Below, in pieces: positions 13,368-64,000 of a stretch of 64,000 nt of DNA. Source of the DNA: an uncultured Nitrososphaerales archaeon. Its GTDB lineage: Archaea; Thermoproteota; Nitrososphaeria; Nitrososphaerales; Nitrososphaeraceae. Made by a program: the position numbers and the translations under genes. The notes below the pieces were generated by a model. The model saw only the letters and a program-made list of their open reading frames with translations, did no database searches and had not been told where the DNA came from. Every line of letters begins with the position of its first letter. Within the stretch, counting starts at the first letter, position 1. The stretch spans positions 1 through 64,000 of the forward strand of contig CAVPXM010000026.1 of the NCBI GenBank assembly GCA_963709405.1. Reading direction: 5' to 3'.

Positions 13368-13397
13368 TGAAACTCAAGATATATGCAGAATATAGAT

Positions 13398-29298: not shown

Positions 29299-29475
29299 GG
29301 TAGATTCCAATCTTTTGAACGTTGCGGTCACAGTTTTGGAGTTAAGAAAAGTCGTCTCGTTTCGTATTCTAATTGCACTCTATTATTATATACAGTAATT
29401 ATAACTTCAATTCTTCCTTACATTAGAAAATAACCCGGGTATCCCGGGTGTTAGATGATACTAGATCCAATTCTA
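29299..29475. repeat. Repeat family C copy 2 followed by a family B left arm
   Basis: C at 29299-29358. aattcttccttacattagaaaataacccgggtatcccgggtg at about 29409-29450. Confidence 0.8.
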
Positions 29476-43927: not shown

Positions 43928-44270
43928 TCATCCCTCTAAACAGTTCTTGTCTAATATAATGCAGCATATGGCGCGCCCCACCATTCTACTACTACTCAAT
44001 CTCTGCTTTATCTTATCATTAATGAGCCATATTCTAAAATCGCGCGACAGATAATTTATCGCAGGTCTTTGACCATTCCATCGTTGTATTATTTTAACTT
44101 CCTGCCCACGCTTCGAATTGATGGTATCAGGAACTCTTACAAGACAGGAGTTTATTGTAGGATTATGTTGAGAATCTCCTTTCTTATTCGTTAGAAACTC
44201 TTCTGCAAACTGCATAAATTTAGATGTCAGATCTTTTCCATCTGACGTTACTGAGTAGAATCTAATGGAA
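43928..44270 (-). pseudogene. Primase-like fragment of the thaumarchaeal primase-PriX family
   Basis: FAEEFLT.KKGD..H.P...SCLVRVP.TINSK..EVKIIQRWNG.RP. Family recognised from memory. Confidence 0.55.
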
Positions 44271-44517
44271 TTCGTGTAGCGTTACTACGTATAGGAGACT
44301 TTATCCGAAAAAGCTGATAATCCTGTAGCAGCCTAAACAGTATGCATGACAGATCTATAAATAGGGACACATTACAATTTCCTGCTTACTATACAGTTAT
44401 GCGTCATCTTCATTCGGATATTGGTCTCCAGTTGAGCTCTCTCGACAGTCCATGAACTTGATTTGTACGATCTTGTCTAGAGCTATTAGACGAGCTTCAT
44501 CATGATGCATTGATTGT

Positions 44518-44620
44518 AATTGGATAGGGATTTACACCCGGGATACCCGGTTAATTTCAACTCTAGAGAAGAATTTAGTGATGTATATAGAAGATTATAA
44601 GACAAAAGTAAATTATAATA
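44518..44620. repeat. Repeat family B, left-arm copy
   Basis: cacccgggatacccggttaatttcaactctagagaagaattt, nearly identical to 57732-57768. Confidence 0.85.
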
Positions 44621-44821
44621 GCTGATTTCTTGACTGCTGCATACGGGCCAGGGCTGAGTGCAATCAGACAGGAAATATTCACGCATCATTTAAAGCCTTT
44701 AAATCAGAAAGCAAATGTGCTTGTAAGCTCTGCTTGATTGATTGACTGATTGATTGATTAATTGAGTAATTTTGAACCGTGTTAATAATTTGCTTTTAAG
44801 GGTGGCCGTGAATTAGAGACA

Positions 44822-45122
44822 ATGAATACTCTAAGCCTATTCGTGATCGTTTTACTGGCCTCGCTGGCAGCCATTGCGTTGGCTGTATTCGTTGCATCTA
44901 ACCCCTTAAGTGTCATGGCAAAAGATAGCGGCACCTTCAGCGGTGACAGTAGCGACAGTAGCGACAGTAGCGACAGTAGCGACAGTAGCGGCGATACCAA
45001 CAGCAATAGCAATGACAATAGCGATCCCGTTGAATCCTGATACTATTATAGAAATGTGGTATAGGCTCGTGCAGGATGACGATAATAACATCAAACCAGA
45101 ACAAGAATACGAAGCTCTCTAG
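44822..45122 (+). CDS. Small exported Ser/Asp-rich protein containing a 9-bp tandem repeat
   Basis: Signal peptide and (gacagtagc)x5 at 44945-44989. A frameshift probably extends it to 45122. Confidence 0.55.
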
Positions 45123-45234
45123 CGATATCTCCAGACTTTTTTGATTATATAGTCTTTACACCTTTACTTCGTGTCGAATACGCTCGCTTTGTTTCTAAAC
45201 TATATTCTTGTGGTGATCAACAACTGATGCTATC

Positions 45235-45765
45235 TCATGATAATATCGGTTCTTTTATTCTAATGCTTTCGATTAATTTCTCAAGATAGCCTAGACATTG
45301 TTCAAAATACGGAATTGCTTTCATATTGGTTTTTGTATAATTAGCTAATACTTCAAAAGCTTCCTGAGAAATTAAGGAATTTCCTAATGAATAATTTCTT
45401 AGTTGCCTTATAGTCCAATACCAGTTACCGTATTGATTTGCCTTATCTAAATCATTTAACAGATCAATACTCTTAGTTTCAGATGATAATGCGCTTTGGA
45501 TTTTGTCTAATTCAATCCTGTCAGATGGGACCGTCAAGCCAAATTTATCGTTTATCTTAAATAGAAGAGAGTCAACCGTTCCAATCATTTGACAAAGAAA
45601 TGAGTCCATCTCTATTTCTGCACTTGTTCGGACTTCGCTTGATGTAAGATCGTTATATCTCAATTCAATATCCTGTAAATTCTTTAAATGTTGTCGGCAG
45701 GCATAAAGCTTAAAGCTTATTCGGTCAGTCTGGAATCTCGAAAAATCTTCAGTAGACAAAATCAC
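45235..45765 (-). CDS. Helical hypothetical protein, HEPN-like (tentative)
   Basis: EMDSFL..D.LL..IN and W..IRQLRN motifs. Confidence 0.6.
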   Translation of the reverse strand: MILSTEDFSRFQTDRISFKLYACRQHLKNLQDIELRYNDLTSSEVRTSAEIEMDSFLCQMIGTVDSLLFKINDKFGLTVPSDRIELDKIQSALSSETKSIDLLNDLDKANQYGNWYWTIRQLRNYSLGNSLISQEAFEVLANYTKTNMKAIPYFEQCLGYLEKLIESIRIKEPILS

Positions 45766-45867
45766 TTATAGAGCTGACTTGTACTCAGCTGATATTTAGT
45801 TTTATTGCAGGATCATTTGTGGCTGAAAAATGATAATAATTTAGTTCTATGAATAAAAAAAGAGGCT

Positions 45868-46265
45868 ATCGTATAGGATGGACTGCGGCGTAACTGCTTC
45901 ATTAAATGGAGAAATGAATGAGCTCATTTCTTATTCTCTTTTTATATTATCTAAGGTATTTGGCGCGGGCGGTCATGACTTATATACAAATAAAGCGTTA
46001 TCTGATCAGTCTCGTTATATATCAAATCTTTGGTCTATAGATCTCACGCTTCATTTCCAAGAATGCTTATAATCTGGCATGCCGCATATCATATTATTAT
46101 AACGCTATTTCCGGGATATTATGGCGGATGTGTTAAAAAATCCGATGTTGTCAGATGTGTTAAACGTACTGCATGTTAACGTAATTAGTATGTTGATTCG
46201 CATCGACCAATTGCTACTATCTATAGATATCATCAATTGGGAGTCGACAGATATTAAGTTCATCA
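45868..46265 (+). repeat. Repeat family A full copy with a 5' extension shared with 54404-54700
   Basis: ggatggactgcggc..catttcttattctctttttata..ggcgcg..tataatctggcatgccgcatatc..ttgctactatctatagatatc. Confidence 0.9.
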
Positions 46266-46498
46266 CGAGTCTTGATAGATAGCCTTGTTGAGCTCAGACT
46301 GGTTTGTATAGCTAATTGGTTGATAATGGAAAAGATGAACAGGCACACGAAAGAAATGATCACGATTATCAATGATTTAAATCTGAAATGGCAAAGGTTG
46401 AGCATTTTAATAAAAATATGGCATACACAAGAGTGCCTCTCCCTCTATAAGTGGTGTATTAGTAGTTATTTAATTGCCTAATTATTATTATCTAATAA

Positions 46499-46699
46499 TT
46501 GTTCACGTCTGAAGAGATCAAAGAAATTTTGAGAAAAAGAATTACAGAAAAGGAGAAGAAGGTAAATCCTCGCCGGTATAATCTAAGGCAAGTAGAAGAT
46601 GCTCTGGCGGAACTAGAGACGTACCAAAGTTTTTTAGCAGATATTACGGATGAAGAGGCTAGACGTGAAATGAATAAGAGTAGGATTAAAAGTTGTTAA
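46499..46699 (+). CDS. Small helical hypothetical protein, paralogue of 27229-27471
   Basis: Shared protein motif and shared upstream sequence. Confidence 0.65.
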   Translation: MFTSEEIKEILRKRITEKEKKVNPRRYNLRQVEDALAELETYQSFLADITDEEARREMNKSRIKSC

Positions 46700-46721
46700 T
46701 CACGCATAGGTGCCACACAAA

Positions 46722-46905
46722 GCGCGCGCCTCATGATAGAAAATACACATTTTATCATCTTAACCAAACGTGAGTCTATACATATGATCTCTCAATCCAG
46801 AAAACCTTTTTAAAGTGATATGTTTCATAATGTAAATAGAAGACGCTATTTCCGATATGGTTATACCTAACTTTACAAGAATCTCATGTCGTCTAAAATG
46901 TTAGT
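46722..46905 (+). repeat. Repeat family A, diverged copy
   Basis: gcgcgcgcctcatgataga..gagtctatacatatg..tagaagacgctatttccgata. Confidence 0.75.
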
Positions 46906-47228
46906 CCGTTAACTATTCTAAAAGGATCCGTCTTAGTGGCAGTCGTGGCGGATCATCTGGTGACGACAATTGAGGATTCTATTTCCAAGCGGCTGAGATA
47001 ACAATCACTTACCATCGGCAAGAGAGATTCAGTAACTAGTAGCAGAAATGATTAAGGAGATCTGGGATAGGATCAGCAATACGCTGCGAAAATGACTAAT
47101 GAGAAACGATAGGTACTATAGTGTCGCTTTGCCAATGTTAGCAAAAGCGACAAGATAGAGACCAGTGATGAAGTCGCAAATCCTATCATATTATCATTGA
47201 AACCAACCTATTCCATGATTTTTCTTAC

Positions 47229-47453
47229 CTACTTACATTGGACATTCATACTAAACGATGTTGAACTTCCAGATCCGGTCTGGTTTTTTTCACAGTTTTC
47301 CGGTAGACCGCTAATTGCGTTGGCCATGTCATGGCCCTTCTTAATCATTTGGTCAATGTTGAGTTCTGCTTTTGCTGTATGGGTGTAGGCTGTCATAGTC
47401 ATAGTTATCGAAATAACAATGGCTATTACGACAATAACAGTGATAGTTACCAT
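47229..47453 (-). CDS. Small secreted protein with a Cys pair
   Basis: Signal peptide, ENCEK..VQCK. Confidence 0.55.
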   Translation of the reverse strand: MVTITVIVVIAIVISITMTMTAYTHTAKAELNIDQMIKKGHDMANAISGLPENCEKNQTGSGSSTSFSMNVQCK

Positions 47454-47674
47454 AGGAAACCTGACGCATTATACCATTTAATATTTGGGATTTATTTATT
47501 TCAGTGTCTGTTATAGAAGAATCTCACCTTCATTTTCATGTCTAGGTATTCCAATGTGTTAGTCTATACTTCTGAGGTCTCATAGTCGAAAAGGTTTTTA
47601 GCGCGGTATTTTTCACACCGTTAATAGAATATCCGATATAATTTGATTGATTTTCGACTACGAGAGCTTATGAT

Positions 47675-48009
47675 TAGTCAACACATTGTACAAGTACGTA
47701 TTTTCTATCTTTAGTTTTTTCCAGACTTATTGGTAGAAAATCACCACTCATTGCAGAATTAATATTATATTTGATCATGTAGTTCGGAGTAAAGTCCGGT
47801 TACCTAAGATTACGACATCTATCGAGCCAATCCCTAATAATATTGGATGCTTCATCAGCAGAACATTTTCTGACGTTAATAAGGTAAGGAGTTACGATAC
47901 GCCTTACAACAAATTTCTTATAATCAACTAAGGGAGTTTGCAATTGCTTCTCGATCCACCAGATCGTTGTTGAACCTGCAGTCCGAGAGCGCGCCGGTCT
48001 AGTGGACAC
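47675..48009 (-). pseudogene. PriX (primase non-catalytic subunit)-like domain remnant
   Basis: WIEKQLQTPLVDYKKFVVRRIVTPYLINVRK..IIRDWLDRC. Confidence 0.7.
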
Positions 48010-48476
48010 CTAATTATATTATTCTCATAACCTGTGGATAATAAGTTATTTCATCGATAGAAAAAAGTTTTCATGTAGAGAACAACTTATGTATCACATG
48101 AGACTAAATTAATTCCAATGCCCATTGCATATGTAAAAAATTCTAATATACAATATGAGCAATTTTATGGAGAAGAGAAGAATAAAGCGGGAAATAACGA
48201 AAATCTTAGATCAAAGCATGTTTTATTCATACATGGCATGGGGTCATCATCTGCTGCTTGGTGAGATATTCCTGAGGCGTTAACTAAAATAGTTACCTCT
48301 AAAAATGAGCACTTTCATACGATAAATTTATATTTAATTGGTTTTGGTAAAAGTGACAAGCCACTTACAGGTGGATATATAGCTGCAGAAGTTGCTATAA
48401 GGAATAAAGAACGAATAGAAAATCTTGTCTTGATAGATTCCTCAGGAACGCTGAGGCAACCAACACCTCTGTTAAG

Positions 48477-49652
48477 AGTTATGTAAACATGTAGATGCTT
48501 TCTCCATGTAAACTGTTTATACTAGTTTTGCCTCTATGTTTTTTATTATAATCACATGCCCAATCAGATACTGCTTTACCTATATCACGTTCATTTTGAA
48601 AGGTGGAATTGTTTATTGCTTGTCGTTGCATCCATAGCCATCTTACCTCTATCAGATTGAGCTCGGGTGATCTGGTGGGAAGAAATACAAGGTGTATCCT
48701 TGGATGATATTTGGATAATACTGCTTTCACCTTGTTTGATTTATGTATCGATACGTTATCAAGTATCAGAAATATCTGCTTGATACTATCGTCATACTTT
48801 TGGTCCATTCTTTTGATAAAATCTAAAAACTGTTTTCCGGTTTTCTTTTTGTAGCCATGCGTCCACATTTGATCATTGGTATAATCGTATATACCAAACA
48901 CGTTTAGAATTCCCTTTGTCTTTTGAGCTTTGGATACCTTAGACTGTGTAGAGGACCAAGATGTACCGCCATATGTTTTTGCTACTATCGGTCCTTTCTC
49001 ATCCTCGTAGAGCAGGACCGAGTCAGAAGACAGGTTACTGTATCTTAGTTCTTCAATTCTCTTTTTTTCAAATGATATTCAGGATCTAGGCTGTATCCCA
49101 GAGTAATCTTTGACTGCCTATATTTTATTCCGTGTTTTAGGAGGATATTTCTAACCTCGGTGTGGCTGATAGCATCTACAAGGCTCATCTCCTTGGAGAC
49201 AAATCCTGCTAGTACTCTTAATGACCATGTGGAAAATGGTAATCCATAATCTTTTCTTGAATTTTTGGTTGCTATCTCCACAATCTTATTCTCCATATCG
49301 TCAGATATTTTGAGTGGTTTATGCTTGTGTATTTTTGATGCTATTCCATCTATACCTTTTTCATTGAAACGATGAATCCATTTTCTTATGTTGCTATCAT
49401 GATGGTTAGTTGCCTTCCTTATTTCAGGAACTGTGTATCCATCATCCTTAAGAAGAATAATCTTTGCACGGTATCCAGATTCTCTATCCTCAAGTATGCT
49501 ATCATGTAACCTATTCTTTTCATTATTTGTAAGCAATCTGAGGAATGTATCCCTCATGCTGATAATTTAAAAGAGAGTAAGCTAAAGGTGTTATGGTATC
49601 TGAACGAGCACTGTTAGTTTACAGAAGAGCATTACATATTCTTTACATAACT
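48477..49652 (-). mobile_element. IS630-family insertion sequence, complete
   Basis: TIRs agttatgtaaa / tttacataact. Flanking direct repeat gttaag at 48471-48476 and 49653-49658. Confidence 0.9.
48479..49557 (-). CDS. tnp: IS630 transposase in two frames joined at an A7G slippery run near 49065
   Basis: HTH ORF ([18 protein letters not shown]), then [24 protein letters not shown]. Confidence 0.9.
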
Positions 49653-50600
49653 GTTAAGCCAGTATCTCAATGTAGCAATGGACCCAGAGCCTAATAGAGA
49701 CAAGGTGAAAGAGGTATTCAAGCAGATGTATGCAAATCCTCTATTATTGTCTGATATAGTGGTTGATGTCTTTATGACAACAATCAGGGAAGAAGGTGCT
49801 AAAAATGCTTTCAAAACTGCCTTTAATGACAGCACTACCCGACCGATCGGCTTCAAAAGGCTTGAGAAGCTTAAGCATATCCCTTGTTTATTGATTTGGG
49901 GAGATCAAGATAATGTAATACCTGAAAAAAATTCCAAAGATTTTAAGGACGCTCTGATTAATGCTAAGTATGAGATAGTCGAAAACGCTGGCCATGCCCC
50001 ATTTGTAGAAAAGACCTCTATAGTATATGAAAAACTACGTTCATTTCTAACTTGATAGATTTCAACCATAAGTTTGTCGCAGGTGGTCTTCTGATCTAGC
50101 TTTCCAGCATTGGTTAAAGCAAACTAAGCTTGAGCAATCAATTTAAGTGACGTTGCATTTTGTCAGAAAGCTCCTCCATTAGGGACCCAATTAGCATATC
50201 TCTCCGGACAATAATTTCTGTCGATTAATAGACATCATGCCATAAATGCTCACGTATATCTCAAACTACAAAATACTTGATCCTGCTACGAATTTGGTTC
50301 ATCATTACTAAAAAAGCGACTAAGGGATTGGGCGCGGTTCTCGACATCCAATTGTCTTGTAATTGTATCGCTAGTGATTTGAAGTTGGATAAGGATATAA
50401 TTGGGGGGCGTTATCCATAGAATTGGATATAGTATCATCAGAGGGCGAGTCTGAGATTAACCAGAAAATCAGGTTTGGTTAAGGCTCAAGCGATGATTAA
50501 CAGATGTTCAGGAAGAATAGTCATATTACTATCATCATCTTTTGGAACTTTTACGTTACCTTTTACATAGTGTTTATTGTCATGGGTTCTGGTGCCACGT

Positions 50601-51437
50601 CTAGGATTTCAAGAAGGACAACAGGTCGGCGTTGAGCTGATCCTGATGGGTTGCAGTGAGGCCGTGAGGTGCGCCAGGATAGTAGATTTCCTTCGCGCCC
50701 TTGATGAGCTTGGCCGATTTCTTAGCCGAATCCTTGACGGGAACGATTTGGTCGTCCTCACCATGCATGACCAAGGTTGGGACATCGAACTTCTTGAGGT
50801 CCTCGGTGAAATCAGTCTCAGAGAAGGCCTTGATGCTTTCGTAGGCGTTCTTGAGGCCAGCGTGCATGCTCCAGAGCCAGAACTGATCCAGGATTCCCTG
50901 GGAGACCTTGGCCCCCTGCCTATTAGCGCCGTAGAACGAGATGGCCAAGTCCTTGTAGAATTGCGAGCGATCCTTGGTTAGGCTCGAACGCAAGTCATCA
51001 AACACTTCCATCGGCAGGCCCTCCGGATTGGTGGCTGACTTCAGCATGATCGGCGGCACAGCCGCGATTAGGACAGCCTTGGCAACTCTCTTCATTCCAT
51101 AGCGACCGATATAGCGGGCGACTTCGCCGCCGCCGGTAGAGTGTCCCACTAGCGTGGCTTCCTTGAGATCAAGCGCCTCGATCACGGCTGCAAGATCGTC
51201 GGCATAGCCGTCCATGTCATTTCCCAAATAGGTCTGGCTCGACCTGCCATGGCCACGACGGTCGTGTGCAACCACGCGGAAGCCATTTTGGGCTAGGAAA
51301 AACATTTGGCCGTCCCAAGCGTCTGAGCTTAGGGGCCAGCCGTGCGAAAAGGTTACGACTGGACCTTTGCCCCAGTCCTTAAAGTAGATTTCTGTGCCGT
51401 CCTTGGTCGTGATCGTGCTTGAGTCTGATTTACTCAT
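50601..51437 (-). CDS. cpo: Non-heme chloroperoxidase / arylesterase (alpha/beta hydrolase)
   Basis: [42 protein letters not shown]. Confidence 0.92.
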
Positions 51438-51619
51438 TGATAATCCAGTACAAATTAGAGTTTATAAGTATATAAAAGGAACAAAAGTACAGTTGCAATA
51501 CATTTTAGGCCCAGAAAAGAAACTTGTAGATAGTTGAAATAACGCTCATGTTCTTTATCTTCTTGTATTTCTTTTCTTCCACTATCAGTATTAGTCCATC
51601 TATTAAAATTTTCACCGTT

Positions 51620-52207
51620 CCGTTTGTGTCTCAATCTGATGCAGGTGAGGCAAAGATTTTTTCTCGTTTCATCAATAAAGATCGGGGAAGGTTTTCTAGT
51701 ATTATAAACAAGAGACCAATCGTGAGCAGACTGTTCTTTCCATCCAGACGAGCTTTCGGGTTTTATGACAATATGTGCAAGCTGATCCCTGCTGTGCGAA
51801 CAGCGCGTATTCAAGTCTTCATCGTACCTCATCACCGTTGGAGAGAAGGAGGCTATAAGGGATGGAAGCATATGAATCCATCACAAATCCGTTCAAACGA
51901 GTCCCAGAGTTTTGCTACTGGAACTTGGGGTGGAGAGTTTCATCCTGAATTTGGTCCTCGCGAGGGAGATGTAATCGTGCTCGAGCACTGGGCACAAAGC
52001 GGCTTTGCCAATACGGATCTTGATGCTCAACTCAAGCAGCGGGGGATCCAGAAAATAATCTTGGTCGTAATGATAGCGAACACCTGTATCGAAGCCACAG
52101 ATCGTCTTGGCATGGAGCTTGGCTACCATGTTAGTCTCATTAAGGATGCAACTGCTGCGCTCAATCATGAAGGCATGCATGCAATAGTTTTTTTATCTAC
52201 CGTATAG
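51620..52207 (+). pseudogene. Isochorismatase-family cysteine hydrolase, truncated
   Basis: GTWGGEFHP..SGFANTDLDAQLKQRGI..ANTCIEAT..ELGYHV..DATAA. Confidence 0.8.
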
Positions 52208-52370
52208 AAGTTGAATCGATGGTTTGAGGGGGCGCGATCCAAGGATTAGAATAGAATGACATATACAAGTTTACGTGTTGGTTTAGGCAGTGGCTATTGC
52301 TAAGGGCTTCATTTAGGAGTTGCAAAGTCATCAAACCTCAAAATAATTCTTGTCCTATAAACGCATTATT

Positions 52371-52560
52371 TGGCGCGCGCCCTAAGGCTGAGTTGCAAAT
52401 GAAGTGTTCTCATTAGGTCTATTTCTCATCAAGGTCTATATATCAAATCAATTGAGTCTATACAGATAATGTCTCATATCTAAAAATGTTTATAATCTGA
52501 TATGACGCATATCGTATTAGAAGACACTTTTTCTGATGGATTTATACTGGATTGATGAAG
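52371..52560 (+). repeat. Repeat family A copy
   Basis: ggcgcgcgcc..gagtctatacagataatgtctcat..tttataatctgatatgacgcatatcgtattagaagacac. Confidence 0.9.
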
Positions 52561-52675
52561 CATTCTATATGGTTCTGTTTGACTAGAATCAAGGGAAGCT
52601 TTCTAGTAATCTGATTCTATCTAATTTTCATTTTTATCTCCCTTAAACACGGGATAACCCTCCGTTCACCTAAGT

Positions 52676-52787
52676 TATCCGTAAAGGTTGCGGTCACTTA
52701 ATCTATTTCGACGAGAACCAACGTACTGAAAGCGGGAAATGGATTCCATTAAGTAACGACACAGGAGAGCCGCATCAATGTCAATAG
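52676..52787 (+). pseudogene. Zn-finger-like mini-domain, copy 1
   Basis: RKGCGHLIYFDENQRTESGKWIPLSNDTGEPHQCQ*. Confidence 0.55.
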
Positions 52788-52860
52788 ACAGGAAAGGAGA
52801 CTATGCTTTGTATACCCTTAAGCAAAACATATTAGTCGCATATTTTATGGGGTAATCTGT

Positions 52861-53160
52861 ATGAGCCAAAAAACCATGGCTATAATTTTAATATCTACAA
52901 TGATCACTATCAGTATAGCCACAATAACTAATAATTGTATTAATATTGCTTTAGCACAGCCTGGTTCAACTCTACCGGCAGAATCTGGCCGGCCTTCACC
53001 ACCAGCATATCCATCACAATCAACAGGACATCTATCATATCCATCATCATCGCTAATACCACATGCTAAACAGGCGACAAAAGTAAATCCAACGCCTGCT
53101 GGAAATATTACTGCTAGTGGTCCTTCACACTTCACTTCTTCCCCTATTCACAGTAAGTGA
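52861..53160 (+). CDS. Small exported Pro/Ser-rich protein
   Basis: Signal peptide and a low-complexity mature region. Confidence 0.55.
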   Translation: MSQKTMAIILISTMITISIATITNNCINIALAQPGSTLPAESGRPSPPAYPSQSTGHLSYPSSSLIPHAKQATKVNPTPAGNITASGPSHFTSSPIHSK

Positions 53161-53194
53161 ATAGCAGGAACAAAGGCGACAGAGTGAGAGACGT

Positions 53195-53323
53195 TATTAT
53201 AGCTGCCGTAAAGGCTGCGGCCAGTTAATTTATTTTGATGCAAATGACGAGAATGGACTTGCTGAAAGCGGCAAACGGATTCCATCGAGTAAAGACACGG
53301 GACAACCACATCAATGTCAATAA
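53195..53323 (+). pseudogene. Zn-finger-like mini-domain, copy 2
   Basis: SCRKGCGQLIYFD..ESGKRIPSSKDTGQPHQCQ*. Confidence 0.55.
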
Positions 53324-53393
53324 CAAGAAATAATACTGATCCTGAAGAACTTCGCAAGTTGGAAGGAGTGATATGAATGTGGACAAAGACATT

Positions 53394-53568
53394 GGGCGCT
53401 GATATCCAAACCAAAGTGGAAGAATTAGAGGAATTAAATCAATCACTAAGGCAGCGTGATAAAGTAAAGGATGATGCAATAGCACAATTATCAAATCAAC
53501 TTGTATCTTTATCAGCTAGATTACAAGAGCTTGAGAGAAAACAAAGCGTAAGCATACCAAGCCAGTAA
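53394..53568 (+). pseudogene. Tyrosine recombinase C-terminal coiled-coil tail remnant
   Basis: GADIQTKVEELEELNQSLRQRDKVKDDA is the same peptide encoded at about 40447-40530. Confidence 0.75.
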
Positions 53569-53915
53569 ATACTTGTTCAATTTTTAACTCTCAAGTTAAT
53601 GACATCCAGGAACCTAGAACTATTTTCTGTTACGCCATTTAGTACTATTGGCAGACAGAATGTCATAAGCTTGATGAGTAAATGTCCAAGTCTAAAAGTG
53701 CGCGCAGGCATAAGAATACAACGACCATAATAAAATATACTGCCTAGATTCTCAAAATTGCCTATTATCTGTTCAAGCTCTTGGTAAATACAAAATAAGG
53801 TTTACGATGCCACAGTATAACTATAGTGAGGTACTATCTACTCAGTCTTGAAACAGCATTAACTAATCTGAAAAATGGAGGCGGCAAGGTTCTCTTAGAG
53901 GAGATTGGACTCTAA

Positions 53916-54335
53916 ATGAATTATATTATATTCGCAGCTATGGCAGCGATCTTGGTCTTTACCACACTGACATCCAACACTTTCGCACACGTATCAGATC
54001 AACAACGCTATAATGATGGATATAATGCTGGCCAAAACTACGCGGCCTGCGATTATAACAATTGCTATCATAGTGATCATGGTTACGATACAGGCTGCCC
54101 AAATGATAAAGTACATACTAACGAATATTGTGATGGATACTCACTTGGTTATACTAGTAAATGGAATTCATTAGCAGGTGGAACATCGACACAGCAATCT
54201 CAATGCCAAGCGCAGGGTGGATCTAATGTACGTGTAGATGGCAGTCATAATAACATAATCATAACTCCTAGACAGACCCAAAAGCAGTCATCAAATAGTG
54301 AATCGAATTCTGAAAATGCTGACTACGGTAAGTGA
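53916..54335 (+). CDS. Secreted Cys/Tyr/Gly-rich protein
   Basis: Signal peptide, YNDGYNAG..C..HTNEYCDGY motif. Confidence 0.7.
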   Translation: MNYIIFAAMAAILVFTTLTSNTFAHVSDQQRYNDGYNAGQNYAACDYNNCYHSDHGYDTGCPNDKVHTNEYCDGYSLGYTSKWNSLAGGTSTQQSQCQAQGGSNVRVDGSHNNIIITPRQTQKQSSNSESNSENADYGK

Positions 54336-54403
54336 TCTGAGGAGGTGAATAGAAACAATTGAAAAAATTAGTAGTAACTAGCCTAGCATTAGCGATGATG
54401 ATG

Positions 54404-54700
54404 ATCGTGTAGGATGGACTGCGGCACAACTGCTTCATTATATGGAGAAATGAATAGGCTCATTTCTTATTCTCTTTTTATAGTATCTGCGGCATCTGGC
54501 GCGCCCCTGACTAACATATGGATAAAGTATTATCTGTCTAATGCTATGTATATCGAACCAAGTCAGTCTATACAGATAGTGTCTCATTTTAGAGAATGTT
54601 TATAATCTGATATGCCGCATATCGTAATAGAAGACACTTTTTCCGATAGAATTATTCTGGATCTGATGGAATATCCGATATTGCCCGATATATCTTAAAA
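54404..54700 (+). repeat. Repeat family A copy with a 5' extension
   Basis: Contains gatatgccgcatatc at 54609-54623 and aligns with 45868-46160. Confidence 0.9.
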
Positions 54701-54701
54701 T

Positions 54702-55001
54702 CTACCTATTCGCTAACTCTGCTAATGTATCGCCATGACACGGCAGAGGTGCACACCAACAACCTAGGACTTTGCCTTTTAACTCTGGAAGCTGGTTCAT
54801 TAATTCGTTGTTTTCTGGGGATAGTAACCATGTCCTATGCTTGGCTATAACTTGTTCTCTAGTACCGTCTTTACCGACTACGAAGGGATTACCCCATCTT
54901 CCATCGCTGCCGCAAATATCTCGACGTATAGCCAGCGAAGGCCGGCCAATATACACATCATAAGGCCATTTCTTGCAATGGACTACGAACTTGCTGGTCA
55001 T
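54702..55001 (-). CDS. DUF4326-family protein
   Basis: VYIGRPS..WGNPF..LKGKVLGCWCAPLPCHGD. Confidence 0.88.
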   Translation of the reverse strand: MTSKFVVHCKKWPYDVYIGRPSLAIRRDICGSDGRWGNPFVVGKDGTREQVIAKHRTWLLSPENNELMNQLPELKGKVLGCWCAPLPCHGDTLAELANR

Positions 55002-55413
55002 TTCTCATTCGTTGCCTTATCTTATAATTTATTCAGTCTCATATGCTTGTATACAGAATCAAGAATATGAATTAGAACAAAAGCAAAAACCATATAGTCA
55101 TAGTACGAAAATTTAACAAACGGCTAAGGGAGTTAGGCTTAGCGTACATGTGTACTCGGATAGTGTCGAGCATACACACCAGCAACTGCTAGAGCTGTAC
55201 GCAGGTATTGAGACAGACTTACGCAGTCATGGAATTGCAATAGCTCCTATGTCAGCGGCAAACGGAGCAATGAGGGAATAGGCGATGGACCTGTTATTAA
55301 CCAAATGTAATCAAGGAATTAATAAGTGGAGTGCCGCACTTAGTTTAAGAAAAATATCCACCGTAAAGTAAAGCATAAATCTACTGGTGACCTGAAATCT
55401 CATTAACATATAC

Positions 55414-55998
55414 TTGTCTTCTGAGTTTGTAATTAAGAAAGGGCCGAAACAATGGGAGGCCAAAATATTCTCAGGAAAAGAGGAAATCGCTGAAATAAAG
55501 AAAGGAGAAGGCCTTAGTTTTAAACTCGTAAGACCCAAGGACAAGATCGAATGGGTGCTTGCTAATTTGGTGCATGGTGAGCACCGTCCTTTCTCTTTCT
55601 CAGTGCGCAAGGCTGGAAAAAAAAGCACCAGCCCGTATACTGACAGCAACGACTTGGGAGATGAAATATTTGTTGTCCGTGACCAGTTGTTCAAGCATAA
55701 TGGCAAATTTTACATGCTCGCAAGTCATCCAGAGGATAAGTCTTGGAATGAATATGTTAATAGTTCAATCAGGTACATCTGTAGGCTAGATGACTTTCCT
55801 TACTCAGAGCTTTCAGAAGTCGACTACCATCATTACACTTTACGGGACAAGATAAAGAGATTTCGCGGTAAAGCCGTTGGTGAAGCTTCAGGTTTGGGAA
55901 TAGAAGAGCGAGGTCACCGTGTAAGGCTAGATAGCGAATTAGAGGACGTAGGGTTATTCATCGCTGCAATTTCATATTTGCTTTATGCCTCGGGCTGA
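55414..55998 (+). CDS. Hypothetical protein
   Basis: 194-aa ORF directly upstream of the oxidoreductase. Confidence 0.65.
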   Translation: MSSEFVIKKGPKQWEAKIFSGKEEIAEIKKGEGLSFKLVRPKDKIEWVLANLVHGEHRPFSFSVRKAGKKSTSPYTDSNDLGDEIFVVRDQLFKHNGKFYMLASHPEDKSWNEYVNSSIRYICRLDDFPYSELSEVDYHHYTLRDKIKRFRGKAVGEASGLGIEERGHRVRLDSELEDVGLFIAAISYLLYASG

Positions 55999-56075
55999 TA
56001 AATAGAAGTAGTTTCACGAGATATTTTTCGGCATGATGTAACTTTAATAAATCAGGCGGTCCACATTCATTTTAA

Positions 56076-57565
56076 ATGGTTGACCCAAACCGCGTTGGTG
56101 GATTTCCTTTTCGTAAAGCAGACGCAGAACAACGGAAGATCGATTTTTCAGAGGTTCAACAACCCTACTCTGAGGAAGAGGTTATGCAAGAAGCCGAGCG
56201 TTGTCTTTTATGTGGAACTCCTGTTTGTATAGATGCTTGCCCAGTTCTTTTGGATGTTCGAGGTATGAACGAGGCTGCGGCCAGAGGAGACTTCAAAACA
56301 TCCTATGAGCGGATCAGAGAAACAAACCCCTTGCTGGGTGTGACTGCCAGATGCTGTCCTCAGCTGCAAGGATTATGTGAAGATGCTTGCGTTTTGAAGT
56401 GGTCAGGACAGCCAATCGGGATCGGTCTCATTCAAAGATATATTGCAGACTGGGAAAGAAAAAATCGACAACCACCTGTATCCATCGAACAAGATACGGG
56501 AAAAAAGGTGGCAGTTGTCGGCGCTGGGCCCGCTGGCCTTGCAGGTTCTGCTCTTCTCAGAAGATATGGTCATCAGGTAACAATATACGAAGCATCTATT
56601 ATGCCAGGCGGGACCGCATGGTATGGGGTTCCAGATTATCATCTGCCTAAAGAAGTTTTAATTGATGAAATCGAAAAAATTAAAGCGATGGGGGTCAACA
56701 TAAGAACCAACACTACTGTAGGAAAAGATGTAACACTCTCTCAACTTCTAGAGGAAAATGATGCAGTCCTAATTACTACAGGCTCGAAAGACACTGCGAA
56801 CCTAGAGATCCCCGGAGTTAATCTTAAAGGAGTTCTGAGCGGATACCAGTTTCTTGAAAGTGTTTTCTTGGAAGGACTGGAAAGTTACTTGAGTAATCCA
56901 AAGTATAGTCTGGGTAACGATATTATTGTAATAGGCGGTGGAGACACATCTCTTGATTGCGCGAGGACTGCGTTAAGGCTTACAAAAGGGAAAGGCAACG
57001 TTACCGTATTATGCTTGCAGCCTGAAACCGGATTACATGTTGACCCAATAATGCTTGAAGAAGCAAAGGAAGAGGGAGTGAAGTTCAGGTTCCTTGGGCA
57101 GGCAAAGTCTTTTGAAGGTGACAGTAACGGACATGTCGTAGCGACAATAATTGACAGTGTACACATGAGTGCTCCTGATCAGTCAGGAAAGAGGCATCCA
57201 GAGGTTATACCAAATAAAGAATTCAAGATGCCAAGTTCTACAGGTACTTATAGCTATTGGTAGAGGTCCAAATTCCTTTCTCCAAAAGAAGGCCGGAATC
57301 AAGACTCGGCAAGCGTAATTCGATTGCAATTGCTGATGACTACAGAACATCTATGAATGGGGTCTTTGCTGCAGGAGACGTAACTAGTGGCGAAACTCTA
57401 ATTGTAAAGGCAATGGAAAAGGGACGTGAGGGCGCTCAAAGAGTTCACGAATATCTAATGGATTTGGAAGCCGACCACATGTCGTTTTACGAAAAATATT
57501 ACACAAAAATCTCATATGATAGGATGTTGGAAGGCAAAAATGATGTTAGCTCACCTCCTGATTAA
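56076..57565 (+). CDS. GltD/SudA-like FAD/NAD(P) iron-sulfur oxidoreductase, frameshift near 57240
   Basis: RCLLC..CIDACP, GAGPAG, GGGDT..D, VFAAGD motifs. Confidence 0.9.
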
Positions 57566-57731
57566 AGAATCAAAGTGTATTTCTGTTCTTCTTGCAGTAC
57601 ACGGTCCACTAGGCATAGGCGTCACAAGTGAATCAGTTGTCCTAACGGACTTGGTGTAATAAGCAATGTTAGAACACCTAATAAGATGCTAAATACAATA
57701 TTGCATTTCCTATGATTAAGGGTCATGCTAT

Positions 57732-57840
57732 GGATACCCGGGTTATTTTCAACTCTAGAGAAGAATTTGAGGAATATGTAGGACGATATATTAACCGAAA
57801 GTTATAATAGAATCCAAAACTATCCCGGGTATCCCGGATG
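57732..57840. repeat. Repeat family B complete unit with inverted ends
   Basis: ggatacccgggttattttc ... aaaactatcccgggtatcc. Confidence 0.85.
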
Positions 57841-57879
57841 CAATATTAGGACGATATCTGTATAATCAACTGCTGCTAG

Positions 57880-58165
57880 CCCTGACTTACTAATGAAGTG
57901 TTATCTTTACATCGCACCAAGTCAGTCTATACAGATAATTCTTGATTTCAGAGAACGTTTATAATCTGGCATGCTGCACATCTGCATTAAAAAAACAATT
58001 TTTCCCGAGTTAACTGTATGAATTTTCCACAAAATCTGAAATAATCCGACGTGTTAAAACATGCTGGATATTAACAGAATTGATTAGGCGGTTCATATCG
58101 ACTAATTGCTACTATCTATAGATATCATTAATTTGCAGAGTCGACAGATTTTGTTTATGAGTTCA
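57880..58165 (+). repeat. Repeat family A full copy
   Basis: ccaagtcagtctatacagata..tttataatctggcatgctgcacatc..ttgctactatctatagatatc..gagtcgacag. Confidence 0.9.
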
Positions 58166-58619
58166 TCAAGTCCTGATAGTTTTACCTATCAATAGGATCA
58201 GACTAGTAAGTTTGGAGAATTTTAGTAAGTCTGATTTATGTGCCTCAAGGAGCTTTGCTTGATGTGATGCCCTACCGATTTCAAATGTACATTTTTTATG
58301 TCAAGATGTACTTTATAGTAATAGTATCCTTGATTTTTGACGATTATCAGATAACACGGACTTTGCTCGAGAGTGTGTTCCGAAAGTGGGGCATATGGAG
58401 TATTCGGATCCTCATAAAAGAAGTTATCTATAGGATCTGGATTTGCTGTGTGCTGCTTCTATATGTATAGCGGAAAGGTTATTTAACTGGGGACACAAGC
58501 ATGCGCGCCCTTCAACATCCCCGTCAGGTTTCCGTTAATATCACTAATGATTTGATCATGGTCTTCGCTTTGTCCTTATGTAAGATGTCAGGCCGTCATA
58601 GACGTCATGGTATCCATAG

Positions 58620-60436
58620 TGGTATAAAAAAAACAAACATGTAGTAATCAGATCAGTAGTTTCAACAATTCTTGCGGTCACATTGATCTTGACTATAATT
58701 GTCTCTGGTGGACAAGTTTCAGCAGACATTAACAAAGTCTCCATTTGCTTTTCCACTTCCAATAAGGTCGCCAGACTTCCAAAATATTAAATTTACTGAT
58801 GGAGTAGCAAGCGGCGATGTTTCACAAAATAGTGTTGTTTTGTGGACACGTGTAAACCAACAGGGACGGTTAACACTTGATGTTTCCACTCTCCCAGACT
58901 TTAAGATACCAGATTTTAAGAAGAGTAATATTCCAGCATTAAAAGAAAATGACTTTACTGCCAAAGTTACGGTAACTGGTCTAAAACCAAACCAACAATA
59001 TTTCTACCGATGGAGCGCCGGTAGAATCGTAAGCGAATTAGGAACGTTCAAGACCGCTCCTACGACTGCAGTCGCTACCAATATACGTTTCTCATGGAGC
59101 GGGGACACTGATGTAAGCACGATTGATGGAAAGCGTGTCTTTGGGAACTGGAAGAGCCTTTTATCGGCGCTATTTGAAAGACCAGATTTTTTTGTTTATT
59201 TGGGTGATGTCATATACTCTGATTCTAGAGCTGGAGGTGATCCAAGGGTTCCTGCTGCCTCAAACACTTGATGAATTTAGACAGATTTACAAAGATTCAC
59301 GAGACATTTTTGCCTTACGCACTTTACTACAGAGAGTACCAACATATCCATTATGGGATGATCATGAAGTTAGAAGCGATTGGGCCGGACAGACAGTTGA
59401 TCGTTTCTTTTATAATATAGGTAATAAAGCATTCCAGGAATACATGCCAATTGGCAAAGTGCAGACTGCCAATACCGATGCACAATGTGCAGGACCGCCA
59501 CAGTACAGAGTATTTCATTGGGGTAAAGCTCCTGACGTCATAATCATTGATACTCGCTCCTGTCGTAGTGATAATGCTCAAAATATATGCAAGGGGGATA
59601 TAGCTCCAACCTTGCCAGCATTTGTGAGAAACCAATTCCCGGCATTCTTTCCACCACAATTACCTCCAGGATGCATAAATGCGGTAAATGATCCAACACG
59701 TACAATGCTTGGAAACACACAAAAGGCCATGTTTAAAGATGCTCTTGCACACTCCACTGCTAAATATAAGTTTGTTATAAGCTCTGTATCAATGCAACAG
59801 GCATATATTTTTCCTTATGATAGATGGGAGGGATATTCTGCAGAGCGCAATGAGATCTTGAACTTTATTCGAGATAACCACATTCAAAACGTAATCTTTC
59901 TTACCACTGACGAACACTTGAACATGATGAATGATGTATTTATAGATCGCTTTACTAATCCTACACCAATAGCCTACGAGTTTATAACCGGCCCGATAGC
60001 TGCATTGACTGACGAAAATAATATTTTGAAAATCTTTCCTGTTCAAGGTCCTCAGGCAGTGAAGGCAAAACAGGATATTCTAAACTTGGTTGTAGGCGTT
60101 GACTGTAGCAATCTGAATGCATTCTCTTATGGCTCAGTTGATATAAATTCAAAGACTGGGGTAGCTAATGTCACCCTCAAGGATGAGAGCGGAAGGACTA
60201 TCAGGGATGAGACAAATCAAAATATTGCATGTACAAAGACATTCGGGACAGAATCATCCACTAGTTCATCTCCAACTTCTACAACACAAAATCTTGATAC
60301 TCCAAAGAGTACCACAAATTCTATAGAGGGATTGTTACAACAACAGCAGAAAAATCGTACTGAAGGAATGTTCCTTCAGCAAGAAGAGGCAAGACAAATG
60401 GATAGAAATTTCCCAGGCCAGGAAGAAGGCAACTGA
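58620..60436 (+). CDS. phoD: PhoD-family alkaline phosphatase, exported, frameshifted
   Basis: GVASGD..VLWTR, YLGDVIYSD, WDDHEV, IDTRSCR, DRWEGY..ER, LTTDEH. Confidence 0.88.
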
Positions 60437-61342
60437 AAGACTTTAGGTATTTAGATTGGACTACATTGACACTTCTCGCGCGCATTTCGCGCGCGACTAG
60501 GTTTGGCTGCTGGAATGAATTAGCACGGTTCTAGAATCTCTAGCATAGTATTTTTGCATGACCTCTTAGTTATAGGTGTCATATTTACGGATTGGAAGAT
60601 GTCATCGTGTATTAAAAGTCATACTTAATAGATGCGCTATCGGGGGGCGCGCGCCTCTCGATAGACATGTACATGAACTAAACCTTGAGATAGCCAGAAA
60701 TTAGAAAGCTATATGTACAACAGATAATTCCTCAGTGCCACTTCCTCCAGGAAATGTTTTGTTAGAGGAGGCTTTCAAAGATGCATGGCAAATAATAATC
60801 ATCATATCAAAGCACGGCATCTCATGTAAGGATAAAATATTTCAAGTTTGCATCTGATGAGGAACACAGCATTATGTCATTTGCAGGTAAAAGTTGACAA
60901 GATAGAATATCGCCAAGGGACTTTGAAACATGGCGCGATATCCCAGATAAATACGTAACACTGGTATCTGTTTGAGTGTCATCGAAATTGCCAGCCGGGA
61001 TCAAAGATAACTAGATACTTAATAGTGCGATATGCTCATTTGTCATATGGCATTCATCTGCCAATTAGTATCGGTTAGCGTTTAAGGTATTTAGTCGCAT
61101 TTGGAAAATTTTTGTATTTTAAGCCACAATACATGTATAGTTTCTTAGAATCTATTTCTTTTACCATATTACACATCAAGTTGATATTGGGTCATAACCA
61201 TGCATAAACGTACATGCTTTATTCCTATCCTTACCCAGAAGTGATTGTCTATAAACCCAGCGTATTGACAAATTCCATGCACAATTTCTATATGTTTACC
61301 CTTCCTTAATCATACCGTTCCCAAAAATTGCTCTATTAATAA

Positions 61343-61364
61343 TTAATAATAGATTTATTATTAA
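61343..61364. promoter_or_regulatory. Inverted repeat upstream of the nikR-like gene (possible operator)
   Basis: ttaataata-gatt-tattattaa, with TATA-like tttaaata at 61381. The AT-rich context lowers its significance. Confidence 0.35.
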
Positions 61365-61409
61365 AAAACAAACATACCTATTTAAATAAGCTAATAAGAA
61401 TAATAACTG

Positions 61410-61793
61410 TTGCCGATTGTCAGCGTGTCGCTGAGTAGAGATCTTCTTAATGATCTGGGCATATTGCAAAAAAGACTTGGTTTTACAGGTAGATCAGAAA
61501 TAATCAGGGCGAGCGTTCGCACTATGCTGTCTGAAGAGAAGGAAAGGGAAGATTTAATCGGCCAGATTCACGCTCTCTTCTTGGTAACTCACGATGAGAA
61601 ATCCGACGATGAAATTAACGAAATGAGACATACTTATGACAAGTTGATAACTACGCACTTGCATAATAAAATAGACCGAGATAAATGTCTCGAGATATTT
61701 GTTCTAAAGGGTGACGCCAGTCAGATAAGAGACATGACAAGGATGTTTCAATCTAACAAGAAAATGGATAATGTTAAATTAATCACAATGTGA
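61410..61793 (+). CDS. nikR: NikR-family ribbon-helix-helix metal-responsive regulator
   Basis: IVSVSL..GFTGRSEIIR, HLH..CLEIFVLKG. Confidence 0.85.
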   Translation: MPIVSVSLSRDLLNDLGILQKRLGFTGRSEIIRASVRTMLSEEKEREDLIGQIHALFLVTHDEKSDDEINEMRHTYDKLITTHLHNKIDRDKCLEIFVLKGDASQIRDMTRMFQSNKKMDNVKLITM

Positions 61794-62426
61794 TATGGAA
61801 ATGCGTTATATTGAGGGCAGTTTTTTGCGTGCGTGAATCTAATGGCATCAAACAACATATTTGAAATCATACCAGATCCCAATTCTTCACGAATTCCATT
61901 CGAATAGCTATTCCCTGGTAAATTATGATCTGACGTATCTGAAATAAAAAATGGAATCATGAGTGAGGAGTGCTACTATCTCAGCTACTTTATTTTCACA
62001 TTTTCATTTTTCTAATCAGGGAATTTATAATTCACCTATTATTAGAATGAAAACATTCAAAAATTACTAATCAATGGTAAAATTGAACGTGTAAGCATTA
62101 CTTTTCACTGGGGTGTTTGTAATAATTATTAATATTTATCACTATGGATTTTAGACACTTTGAAGTGTGATGGATCATGAACTGTATTGTTCTCAGATTT
62201 AATTGCATCCCTTATTGCAACTCATGATGGTGTTGAGGATTCAGGTATGGTTGATGTATGTGACATTGGTCAAGATCTTTTTCGCACACTCAGGTGGCCC
62301 TTCCATATCGTTAGTATTATTAAATTCTTTATACACGACCACATTAATATTATTAACAAAAGTATATAAAGTTATTAGTTTCTATATCATATTACGCAGA
62401 AGCTTAGTAATCTGTTAATTGGATTA

Positions 62427-63341
62427 TTGCTCGTTATTATAATAACGTCAATCTCAGAGAGTGTTTTTTCAACTGCTAGCACCAGTGCTATTACTACAAG
62501 CTCCTTTAAAACTAACGCATCTAAACTGAAGGTTATAGCATCTTTTTTTCCAATCTATGAATTTGTAAAGAAAGTTGGCGGCAATAAAGTAGATGCGTCA
62601 GTATTAGTTCCTGTCGGGGCTGAGCCTCACGATTTTGATCCTACTATTCAACAAATTCAGAATATTGAATCGGCTGCCGTATTGGTATACAATGGAGCCG
62701 GGATGGAAGGAACATGGATAAACAAAGTTAATCCAAAGTTTGCAATTGATTCCAGTAAAGGTTTAAACTTACTTTCTAGTAATGATCCCAAGATTCATTC
62801 ATCAACAGACCCTCATATTTGGCTAGATCCAATCCTTGCAATCCATCAGGTTGAGAATATACGCGATGGCTTGATGAAGGTTGATCCTACTAACTCCGTG
62901 TATTATAAGAATAATGCTCAGAGCTTTATTGGACAACTAATGTCATTAGACAACGCTATAAGAGGAAACATTTCTAGTTCCAATTGTGCAAAAAGAGAAT
63001 TCGTTGCTTTCCACAATGCTTTTGGCTACTTCGCAAAAGAGTACGGTTTGAAACAACACGGTATTCACCAAGGTTTAACACCTGAAGGAGAAATACTCCC
63101 ACAACGGTTGGTAGATGTAGTACAACTTGCAAAGAAGATTGGCATAAATGTAATTTATTCTGAAGATTTGATCGATCCTCGCTCAGCTCAAACTATAGCA
63201 GATGAGGTTCCGAATGGAAAGGTGTTGGTTTTAAGTCCAATCGAAGGGATAAAACCACATGAACAACAAGAGGGAATAGGCTACATTGATAAGATGTATC
63301 AAGACCTGTCAGATTTAAAGGAAGGTCTGCAATGCAAATAG
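62427..63341 (+). CDS. znuA: Zn/Mn ABC transporter substrate-binding protein
   Basis: EPHDFDP, DPHIWLDP, FHNAFGYFA. Confidence 0.92.
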   Translation: MLVIIITSISESVFSTASTSAITTSSFKTNASKLKVIASFFPIYEFVKKVGGNKVDASVLVPVGAEPHDFDPTIQQIQNIESAAVLVYNGAGMEGTWINKVNPKFAIDSSKGLNLLSSNDPKIHSSTDPHIWLDPILAIHQVENIRDGLMKVDPTNSVYYKNNAQSFIGQLMSLDNAIRGNISSSNCAKREFVAFHNAFGYFAKEYGLKQHGIHQGLTPEGEILPQRLVDVVQLAKKIGINVIYSEDLIDPRSAQTIADEVPNGKVLVLSPIEGIKPHEQQEGIGYIDKMYQDLSDLKEGLQCK

Positions 63342-63688
63342 TAGTAGAATCACTCGAGACTAAACGCCATGACTATAATAATCTCTTATCGTCTCATTCT
63401 TTATCTTCGGATGACATCTTATTTATTGTACACGATGACCTTTTAGTAATCACTGATATTATTGATAATGTAAAAAACATATACCTTGGATGCACTCCTG
63501 CGTTCCAAGTAAACTATAACAGAGAAGTTGCAATGCTTTGCCTGCAGGTTAGAAAAGCTGGGGAAGTCCTTCAAGAGATAGGTGGATTACCACGGATGAA
63601 TTCAAAGCCAATTATACATGTACACGTGCCTTGTGCTTGCCAGAACATAGATTTCAATGATAATGATTGGAAAACCTATGTTCATTAA
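63332..63688 (+). CDS. Hypothetical protein in the position expected for the ABC ATPase
   Basis: Overlaps the znuA stop. No Walker A or ABC signature. Confidence 0.35.
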   Translation: MQIVVESLETKRHDYNNLLSSHSLSSDDILFIVHDDLLVITDIIDNVKNIYLGCTPAFQVNYNREVAMLCLQVRKAGEVLQEIGGLPRMNSKPIIHVHVPCACQNIDFNDNDWKTYVH

Positions 63689-63723
63689 ATCATTAGTTCA
63701 TATGATGTTCAGGAACTGTCAAT

Positions 63724-64000
63724 ATGATATTTGAGATTCTTCAATTTGGTTTTATGCAACGTGCATTAATTTCTGGAATTGCAATCGCTATAAATTGCTC
63801 TGTAATTGGACTTTTCCTTGTTTTGAGACGACAATCGTTATTCGGCGATGCTCTTTCACATGTAGCTTTTGGCGGAATAGCTGTCGGTCTATTTACAAAT
63901 ATATATCCGATATGGACAGCTTTTATAGTATCTATTCTAGCATCTTTGGGAATTACTAAACTAAGACAGTCCGCAAAAATTTCTGCAGATTCTGCTGTTG
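63724..64000 (+). CDS. znuB: Zn/Mn ABC transporter permease, runs off the window
   Basis: MIFEILQFGFMQRAL..GLFLVLRRQSLFGDALSHVAFGG. Confidence 0.9.
   Translation, partial: MIFEILQFGFMQRALISGIAIAINCSVIGLFLVLRRQSLFGDALSHVAFGGIAVGLFTNIYPIWTAFIVSILASLGITKLRQSAKISADSAV

Follow-up and report, generated by a model that had tools for sequence, protein, structure and literature searches.

A dispersed element with inverted iteron arms beside primase-helicase genes: a candidate replication-origin-type site in a soil Nitrososphaeraceae genus

The origins of SaPIs, as described in PMC9371898, lie directly downstream of rep and have an AT-rich center that is flanked on either side by two or more iterons, in opposed directions; the cognate origin is bound by SaPI Rep or by a fused Pri-Rep protein (PMC9371898). 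In the Sulfolobus plasmid pRN1, the PrimPol-SF3 gene orf904 is followed, within 166 bp, by an essential stem-loop of 100 nt, and the authors of that work propose such a structure as the assembly point for replication proteins of this domain type (PMC4234260). Taken together with the putative origin of phage BIP-1, the essential stem-loop is ~100 nt long and falls within 166-232 bp downstream of the gene (PMC4234260, PMC3869888). Within the pRN family the structure of the stem-loop is conserved and its sequence is not, and iterons are explicitly absent in the account of PMC4234260. Integrated elements with primpol-S3H replication proteins are also known from thaumarchaea (Krupovic et al. 2019, PMC6563490). 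The main text of that paper contains neither the phrase “origin of replication” nor the word “MITE”, and we found no cis-acting site of the kind reported below described in it. Our literature searches returned no paper on MITEs in Thaumarchaeota or Nitrososphaera, and no description of a cis-acting replication site for mobile elements of ammonia-oxidizing archaea.

Here, we analyze a dispersed element, Repeat B, in a 64-kb stretch of DNA from an uncultured soil Nitrososphaeraceae archaeon (hereafter, “the window”) and in related genomes. We describe its anatomy, where it lies relative to a helicase gene, and how arm sequence and helicase clade correspond. From this architecture, and by analogy with the systems above, we favor with moderate confidence the reading that Repeat B is a lineage-specific replication-origin-type site of integrative plasmid-like elements in one genus of soil Nitrososphaeraceae.

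The likeness to SaPI/PICI origins, as these are described in the source cited above, is one of layout, and we claim no sequence homology. Both kinds of site lie immediately downstream of a helicase or primase-helicase frame (which is not so for the orphan copy of the window), both have paired, opposed iterons around an AT-rich center, and in both the iteron sequence is matched to the cognate helicase, here by correlation. The differences are that the host is archaeal, that the protein combines PrimPol (archaeo-eukaryotic primase) with D5_N and DUF5906 rather than being a SaPI Rep, that the iterons are 9 bp long and only two per side, versus the 5-6 bp given for SaPI, and that many orphan copies are scattered in the chromosome.

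Anatomy and distribution of Repeat B

A Repeat B unit is ~115 bp long and consists of two inverted, GC-rich arms of 17 nt (CACCCGGGATACCCGGG) flanking an interior of ~85 nt. Mean GC content is 70% in the arms and 24% in the interior; for the genome as a whole it is 37%. Each arm is made up of two tandem 9-mers, CCCGGGATA, and the two arms are oppositely directed. In the window, GGATACCCGGG occurs at 57732-57742 (+) and again at 57824-57834 (-). These two sites, together with a match to an nhmmer profile built from the 11 full copies in the window's genome (G000), confirm the complete unit that the initial annotation had placed at 57732-57840. Because the outer 6 nt of its left arm have decayed, the unit is correctly bounded at 57726-57840, and the inverted ends, rightly recognized in that annotation but given as 11 nt, belong to arms that are 17 nt long in the family. 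Allowing one mismatch, the window contains five GGATACCCGGG sites versus 0.27 expected, a number reached in none of 100 shuffles. The profile search yields five loci on the window's contig, one full and four truncated:

57726-57840, + strand: full core copy, an orphan without an adjoining helicase gene (model positions 4-115; profile match at 57729-57840, E 5e-30)
57686-57725, + strand: diverged remnant of the conserved “left extension” beside the full copy (approximate bounds, set by eye)
57726-57742, + strand: left arm of the full copy; inner 9-mer kept, outer 9-mer decayed, with 6 outer nt off consensus
57743-57823, + strand: AT-rich interior of the full copy, 27% GC
57824-57840, - strand: right arm of the full copy; two tandem 9-mers CCCGGGATA, one mismatch to the 17-nt consensus
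44535-44621, + strand: truncated copy with left arm and interior (model 1-85)
29359-29450, - strand: truncated copy with a perfect left arm and with the left extension (model 1-95)
20377-20414, + strand: truncated copy, right arm only (model 78-115), 79 nt past an integrase reading frame
13392-13441, - strand: truncated copy (model 1-50); a ComA-family gene starts 25 nt downstream of it

The three left arms reported to stand alone at 13398, 29410 and 44535 and the right arm at 20378 are real truncated copies, since the profile finds a locus at each of these places. At the “trace near 52645” there is no profile match at E <= 1 and no motif match at <= 1 mismatch. The canonical letters of the outer arm are present in loose contig ends of other Repeat B copies in public soil contigs. 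Next to the arms, the interior of the window copy carries a sub-terminal dyad, CTCTAGAG on the left and TTATAATAGAAT..AAAACTAT on the right; in the family at large the internal dyad reads CTCTAGAG in one subfamily and CCTAAGG in the other, which by eye may be a compensatory change. The truncated copy at 13392-13441 sits in the divergent gap between the ComA-family gene (12336-13367, - strand) and a cupin gene, and this AT-rich remnant could be a source of promoter sequence.

Across the 4.83-Mb genome, the profile detects 23 Repeat B loci (11 full, 12 truncated), five of which fall in the window, a stretch that makes up 1.3% of the genome; the 17-nt arm with 0-3 mismatches is found at 33 places. 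Most copies have 60-80 nt, in some cases 130 nt, of conserved sequence beyond the left arm. This left extension is absent from the copies on contigs C12, C17, C54, C73 and C75, which start exactly at the arm. Homology among copies mostly ends within a few nt of the arms, so that borders are sharp. None of 47 copies (23 in G000 and 24 in loci of its relatives) overlaps a stop-free frame of at least 110 codons by more than 20 nt, and such frames make up 59.9% of G000. Truncated copies arise through ordinary decay. The one on C37, for instance, is a plain deletion derivative (~245 nt) of the duplicated C96 locus. In the C12 copy, the left flank of the C75 copy is joined to the right flank found at C17 and C54, and these mixed flanks therefore point to recombination inside the element.

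Of 41 related genomes searched with the complete unit, 8 give a match. Seven of these are the seven genomes of the genus; the eighth match, in another genus, spans 28 nt (E 1.7e-4), so that beyond the genus there are only chance-level matches, and the order's 16 other families give none. The 17-nt arm at <= 2 mismatches occurs 8-28 times per genome in the seven genomes, versus 0 for a reversed-pattern control. In a search of one genome for each of 185,579 species, exact matches to the arm pattern fall in 14 contig stretches, 12 of them in contigs titled Nitrososphaeraceae archaeon MAGs and two being isolated bacterial matches. Metagenome contigs add 22 stretches with the arm pattern, of which the profile confirms 20, and the viral contigs scanned with this pattern give 0 matches. 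From this distribution we conclude that Repeat B is restricted to the genus and present in every sampled member of it.

Primase-helicase genes and clade-matched arms

An all-versus-all search of the proteins encoded around the copies reveals one gene that recurs beside the right arm in four species. Its Pfam matches are D5_N and DUF5906, which identify an SF3 helicase. In five of the seven genus genomes, one Repeat B copy lies 20-45 nt downstream of the stop codon of this helicase (G000:C6, G001:C48, G004:C22, G005:C195 and G002:C29). The 3' end of the gene abuts the right arm, and the relative orientation of gene and element is constant in all five; the metagenome contig L085 has the same helicase-then-Repeat B arrangement. 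When the five linked copies are aligned, the 3' end of the helicase gene is strongly conserved and the 20-45-nt spacer is unalignable; after the spacer come conserved arms and sub-terminal segments, followed by the conserved left extension. The helicase on G000:C6 is a truncated remnant without the PrimPol part, and the distal arm of its copy has decayed.

The intact module is found on G002:C29, a contig of 8.6 kb. It encodes a 757-aa PrimPol+D5_N+DUF5906 protein, and Repeat B follows this gene after 40 nt. The contig also carries two unknown ORFs and a tyrosine integrase of 409 aa, from which the intact Repeat B unit is 5 kb away. The ends of the contig do not overlap as a sign of circularity, and a 21-nt direct match between the interior of the element and a site beyond the integrase is at chance level (E 0.56). 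With its tyrosine integrase and primpol-S3H fusion, the module agrees in gene content with the cryptic integrated elements and ICEs of PMC6563490. In G000, contig C49 carries a truncated Repeat B copy, a homologue of orf110 and a full integrase in the order seen on G002:C29. The window itself has a related integrase:

19262-20298, + strand: frameshifted tyrosine integrase, its protein 76-81% identical to the integrase of G002:C29

Helicase homologues in G000 are restricted to contigs C6 and C73. Linkage to mobile-element genes in the expected order is seen for two of the 23 copies, namely C6 (truncated helicase) and C49 (orf110 and integrase), and no helicase remnant was found beside the other 21, the window copy included. 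Judged by Pfam, which gives 22 integrase matches, an integrase is present within 5 kb of four of the 23 copies, three of these copies being independent, versus ~1 expected; judged by tblastn, eight copies lie within 4.2 kb of an integrase fragment. The enrichment of Repeat B near integrases is modest, and the association is weak in the fragmented assemblies of the relatives. In a phage collection, the closest full-length relative of the helicase is ORF2 of a Nitrosopumilaceae spindle-shaped virus (27.7% identity over 99% coverage). ORF2 is directly followed by another ORF, which therefore leaves no room in which to seek a comparable downstream site.

Genes of other helicase clades in the genus are likewise followed by an element of this kind. 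An automated search for inverted arms of 16 nt (<= 2 mismatches, spacer of 50-120 nt, within 500 nt past the stop) finds them behind 10 of 14 helicase genes examined in the genus, versus 3 of 400 random 500-nt windows of G000. Three genes of G004 that fall outside this definition have the same layout with ~78% arm complementarity (by eye; L070, first listed pair), and the fourteenth gene is that of G000:C6 with its decayed distal arm. These elements are 105-127 nt long and start 14-190 nt past the stop codon. As read from the sequences, each arm consists of two tandem 9-mers in all five arm types:

Type A (Repeat B), CCCGGGATA twice per arm: G002:C29, G000:C6 and the other helicase-linked copies
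Second type, GTATCCATA repeats: G002:C39, G001:C152, G001:C64, G006:C535
Third type, TGTCTTAAC repeats: G002:C161, G002:C125, G002:C83
Fourth type, TGGCCTAGG / TGGTCTAGG: G000:C73, two genes
Fifth type, TTGCCCTAG / TTGCCTTAG: G004:C75, G004:C24, G004:C84

The five arm types map onto five helicase clades, a correlation in which protein identity is 72-100% within clades and 28-59% between them. An arm of the second type is also present in the window, close to the full Repeat B copy:

57900-58620, no strand assigned: dispersed ~700-bp repeat whose end (58593-58621) is an arm of a GTATCCATA-type element, the arm also being placed at 58604-58621

In related genomes, the GTATCCATA-type element follows a different helicase clade. 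The ~700-bp repeat has dozens of copies or fragments in G000 and up to 41 matches in one relative, and it is often located 0.2-2.5 kb from Repeat B copies. The elements behind the two C73 helicase genes (G000:C73 97787-97898 and 81298-81409; L066) share a CCTAAGGAA.AATTT box with one Repeat B subfamily, which, despite the different arms, hints at a possible common ancestry of the element types.

A site directly after a stop codon might also serve transcription. Repeat B could be a two-way terminator, each end having a GC hairpin and then a T-run in the inward direction, either alone or combined with an outward TATA-like box (TTATAATAG), or it could be a small-RNA gene. A GC hairpin of 6-7 bp can form in each arm, with TTATTTT or ATAGTTTT after it, all copies are intergenic, and the helicase-linked ones come directly after the stop codon. 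However, the element shows no orientation bias to the downstream gene: an ORF lies to the right of 35 copies, on the same strand in 15 cases and on the opposite strand in 20. Scans of the window for tRNAs and Rfam families found nothing, and the clade-specific tandem 9-mers are left unexplained. We therefore consider a transcription signal improbable. Contigs from an RNA library cover the neighboring genes and not the element, which is uninformative either way because contigs cannot show transcription.

Target sites, partner elements and junctions

The initial annotation had proposed a MITE, and in form the comparison with the MITEs of bacteria and archaea holds. Repeat B has the appropriate size, 17-nt terminal inverted repeats, an AT-rich non-coding interior, 23 dispersed intergenic copies, truncated relics, and homology that stops near the arms. 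That none of the 47 copies intrudes on long stop-free frames, even though these cover 60% of the genome, speaks for the same interpretation, as does the situation in related species: in 3 of 3, no copy follows the gltD-like orthologue, though the intergenic DNA there is unalignable. In this scenario, a classical MITE would have been moved in trans by a DDE transposase, and one copy would have landed beside the helicase gene of an ancestral element. We regard it as unlikely on several grounds, the first of which is the lack of a target-site duplication. We scanned 25 of 32 full copies (five were skipped because the arm was not located, and two were dropped because they share flanks with another copy) at offsets of 0-8 on each side and lengths of 2-9. 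Across these 567 offset/length combinations there was no copy-specific duplication (best permutation p 0.017), although the copies are old and a short duplication may have decayed.

An autonomous partner is missing as well. Arm pairs in the seven genomes are all 90-125 nt apart, hence there is no long element with these ends, and no autonomous element ending in such arms was found in the seven genomes, a negative result from assemblies of 75-96% completeness that falls short of proof. In G000, arm pairs 300-12000 nt apart at <= 5 mismatches occur only at chance level, and the IS630-like and IS5-like elements of the window have different ends. Further points against a MITE are the 60-130 nt beyond the left arm that are common to most copies and the tandem 9-mer arms that co-vary with helicase clade. 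A single ancient insertion beside a helicase gene could be enough for the linkage in clade A; it would not account for the analogous elements of four other helicase clades, each with its own arms at the same place, which independent insertions leave unexplained.

Pairing of left and right flanks within the genome brought up segmental duplicates only, and no empty paralogous site. We also compared positions 44000-63999 with contigs from public reads (three DNA runs and one RNA-library run), none of which skips the element. Contigs of two other soil samples have it at the same place; these contigs extend from the gltD-like gene into the element and end at 57761. Paired, inverted, hairpin-forming units in intergenic DNA are reminiscent of REP/BIME-like palindromes handled by a RAYT (Y1 HUH) transposase, or of an IS200/IS605 derivative. 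G000, which is 91% complete, has no match to Y1_Tnp (PF01797), whereas 6 of 14 control genomes do, and the probability of this reading is in our view close to negligible.

The other proposal of the initial annotation was that the unit represents the joined left and right ends of a larger element, in the manner of attP. Full copies would then be attP-like and halves would be attL and attR. In the window, the halves at 20377 (right) and 44535 (left) are indeed co-oriented and overlap in TATAATAG, an integrase gene ends shortly before the right half, and partial copies tend to break off between model positions 66 and 101. However, that integrase lies outside the segment bounded by the two halves, and the break points as a whole spread from 43 to 108 with no single shared core. 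The C37 copy owes its truncation to a plain deletion, neither the C49 module nor the integrase of the window is flanked by significant direct repeats, and the unit on G002:C29 is intact and 5 kb from the integrase. With neither a consistent distant pairing of arms nor flanking direct repeats, we judge an attachment site or junction highly improbable. The broader idea that the unit is part of a larger element survives in another sense: Repeat B is a non-coding module downstream of the primase-helicase gene of an integrase-bearing element.

A putative origin-type site and its orphan copies

If Repeat B is an origin-type site, the helicase would bind the iterons of its own clade, by analogy with the SaPI Rep/PriRep origins and the origin stem-loop of pRN1, and would load on both sides. 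The AT-rich center would then be melted by the helicase and synthesis primed. Copies orphaned from their helicase would decay by point changes, deletions, and recombination within the element. The analogy with pRN1, as that system is described in PMC4234260, extends to the PrimPol + SF3 helicase architecture and to the G002:C29 copy, which when folded as DNA gives a comparably long hairpin (-23.4 kcal/mol, z -6.7). Among nine copies folded in this way, z was <= -3.1 in six, the weak ones being the window copy (-2.0), G001:C48 (-1.8) and G000:C6 (-0.7). The difference from pRN1 is that the arms of Repeat B are conserved iteron pairs around a variable center, and that most copies pair as DNA only at the 17-nt arms, forming a terminal stem and no long stem-loop.

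Both the full unit of the window (57726-57840) and its four “solo arms” are best read as orphan copies without an adjoining helicase. The sharp borders of orphans count against the origin-type reading, as they are predicted by a mobile unit and not by simple decay of whole integrated elements. Three orphans (L012, L013, L018) have at least 130 nt of left flank in common with the helicase-linked copy of G001, which suggests that they are relics of integrated elements. The orphans that start exactly at the arm (C12, C17, C54, C73, C75) instead suggest a discrete unit. An orphan may have its source in a relic, in mobilization, or in recombination at the arms.

One further variant, which we hold to be quite unlikely, is that origin units have “gone MITE”: they would have spread as chromosomal orphans that bind an incoming helicase as decoys, or that are copied by the replication machinery of the element. 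If this were true, orphan arms would titrate the initiator and amount to an incompatibility-type immunity against that plasmid lineage. G000 contains about 21 orphans of type A and about 15 of the second type, yet neither of these orphan-rich arm types has an intact cognate helicase there, and for the second type no helicase of its clade is present at all. The arm type with two cognate helicase gene copies in G000 (211 and 306 codons, versus 585-799 in other clades) has no orphans. This distribution is a hint in support of decoys.

To our knowledge, there is no genetic system for ammonia-oxidizing archaea. A primase-helicase gene with its clade-matched iteron element constitutes a compact and concrete candidate for a minimal replicon, and therefore a candidate vector. 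The orphans, for their part, show that at the level of raw sequence a putative origin-type site can pass for a MITE, which calls for caution in repeat annotation. They also raise the question of what such copies are: junk, mobile units, or a chromosomally encoded form of plasmid incompatibility.

Several other features of the window and its genome are worth recording. The frameshift that splits the gltD-like gene (56076-57565; sites 57243 and 57305) coincides with a 1-nt difference at 57243, and the base at 57243 is absent in contigs of three other soil samples; many split ORFs may therefore be in part assembly indels or strain-specific differences rather than pseudogenes. G000 has 22 Pfam integrase matches and a size of 4.8 Mb, versus 1.2-3.5 Mb for most listed members of the family, and the genus seems loaded with mobile-element debris. 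An IS630-like insertion sequence at 48472-49657 has HTH and DDE_3 frames and 16-nt inverted ends, and it is a multi-copy element, since its read depth in other soil samples is ~10-fold that of its flanks. Another dispersed repeat of ~115-140 nt, at 34821-34955, has ~10 copies in G000 and is also present at positions 1-140 of G002:C29, one end of that contig. Finally, a DEAD/Helicase_C/MrfA-Zn-binding helicase at 35780-38501 is split into two frames, and a C-terminal integrase fragment is located at 40276-40428; together they suggest an island of foreign or defense-type genes spanning the 20-45 kb stretch.
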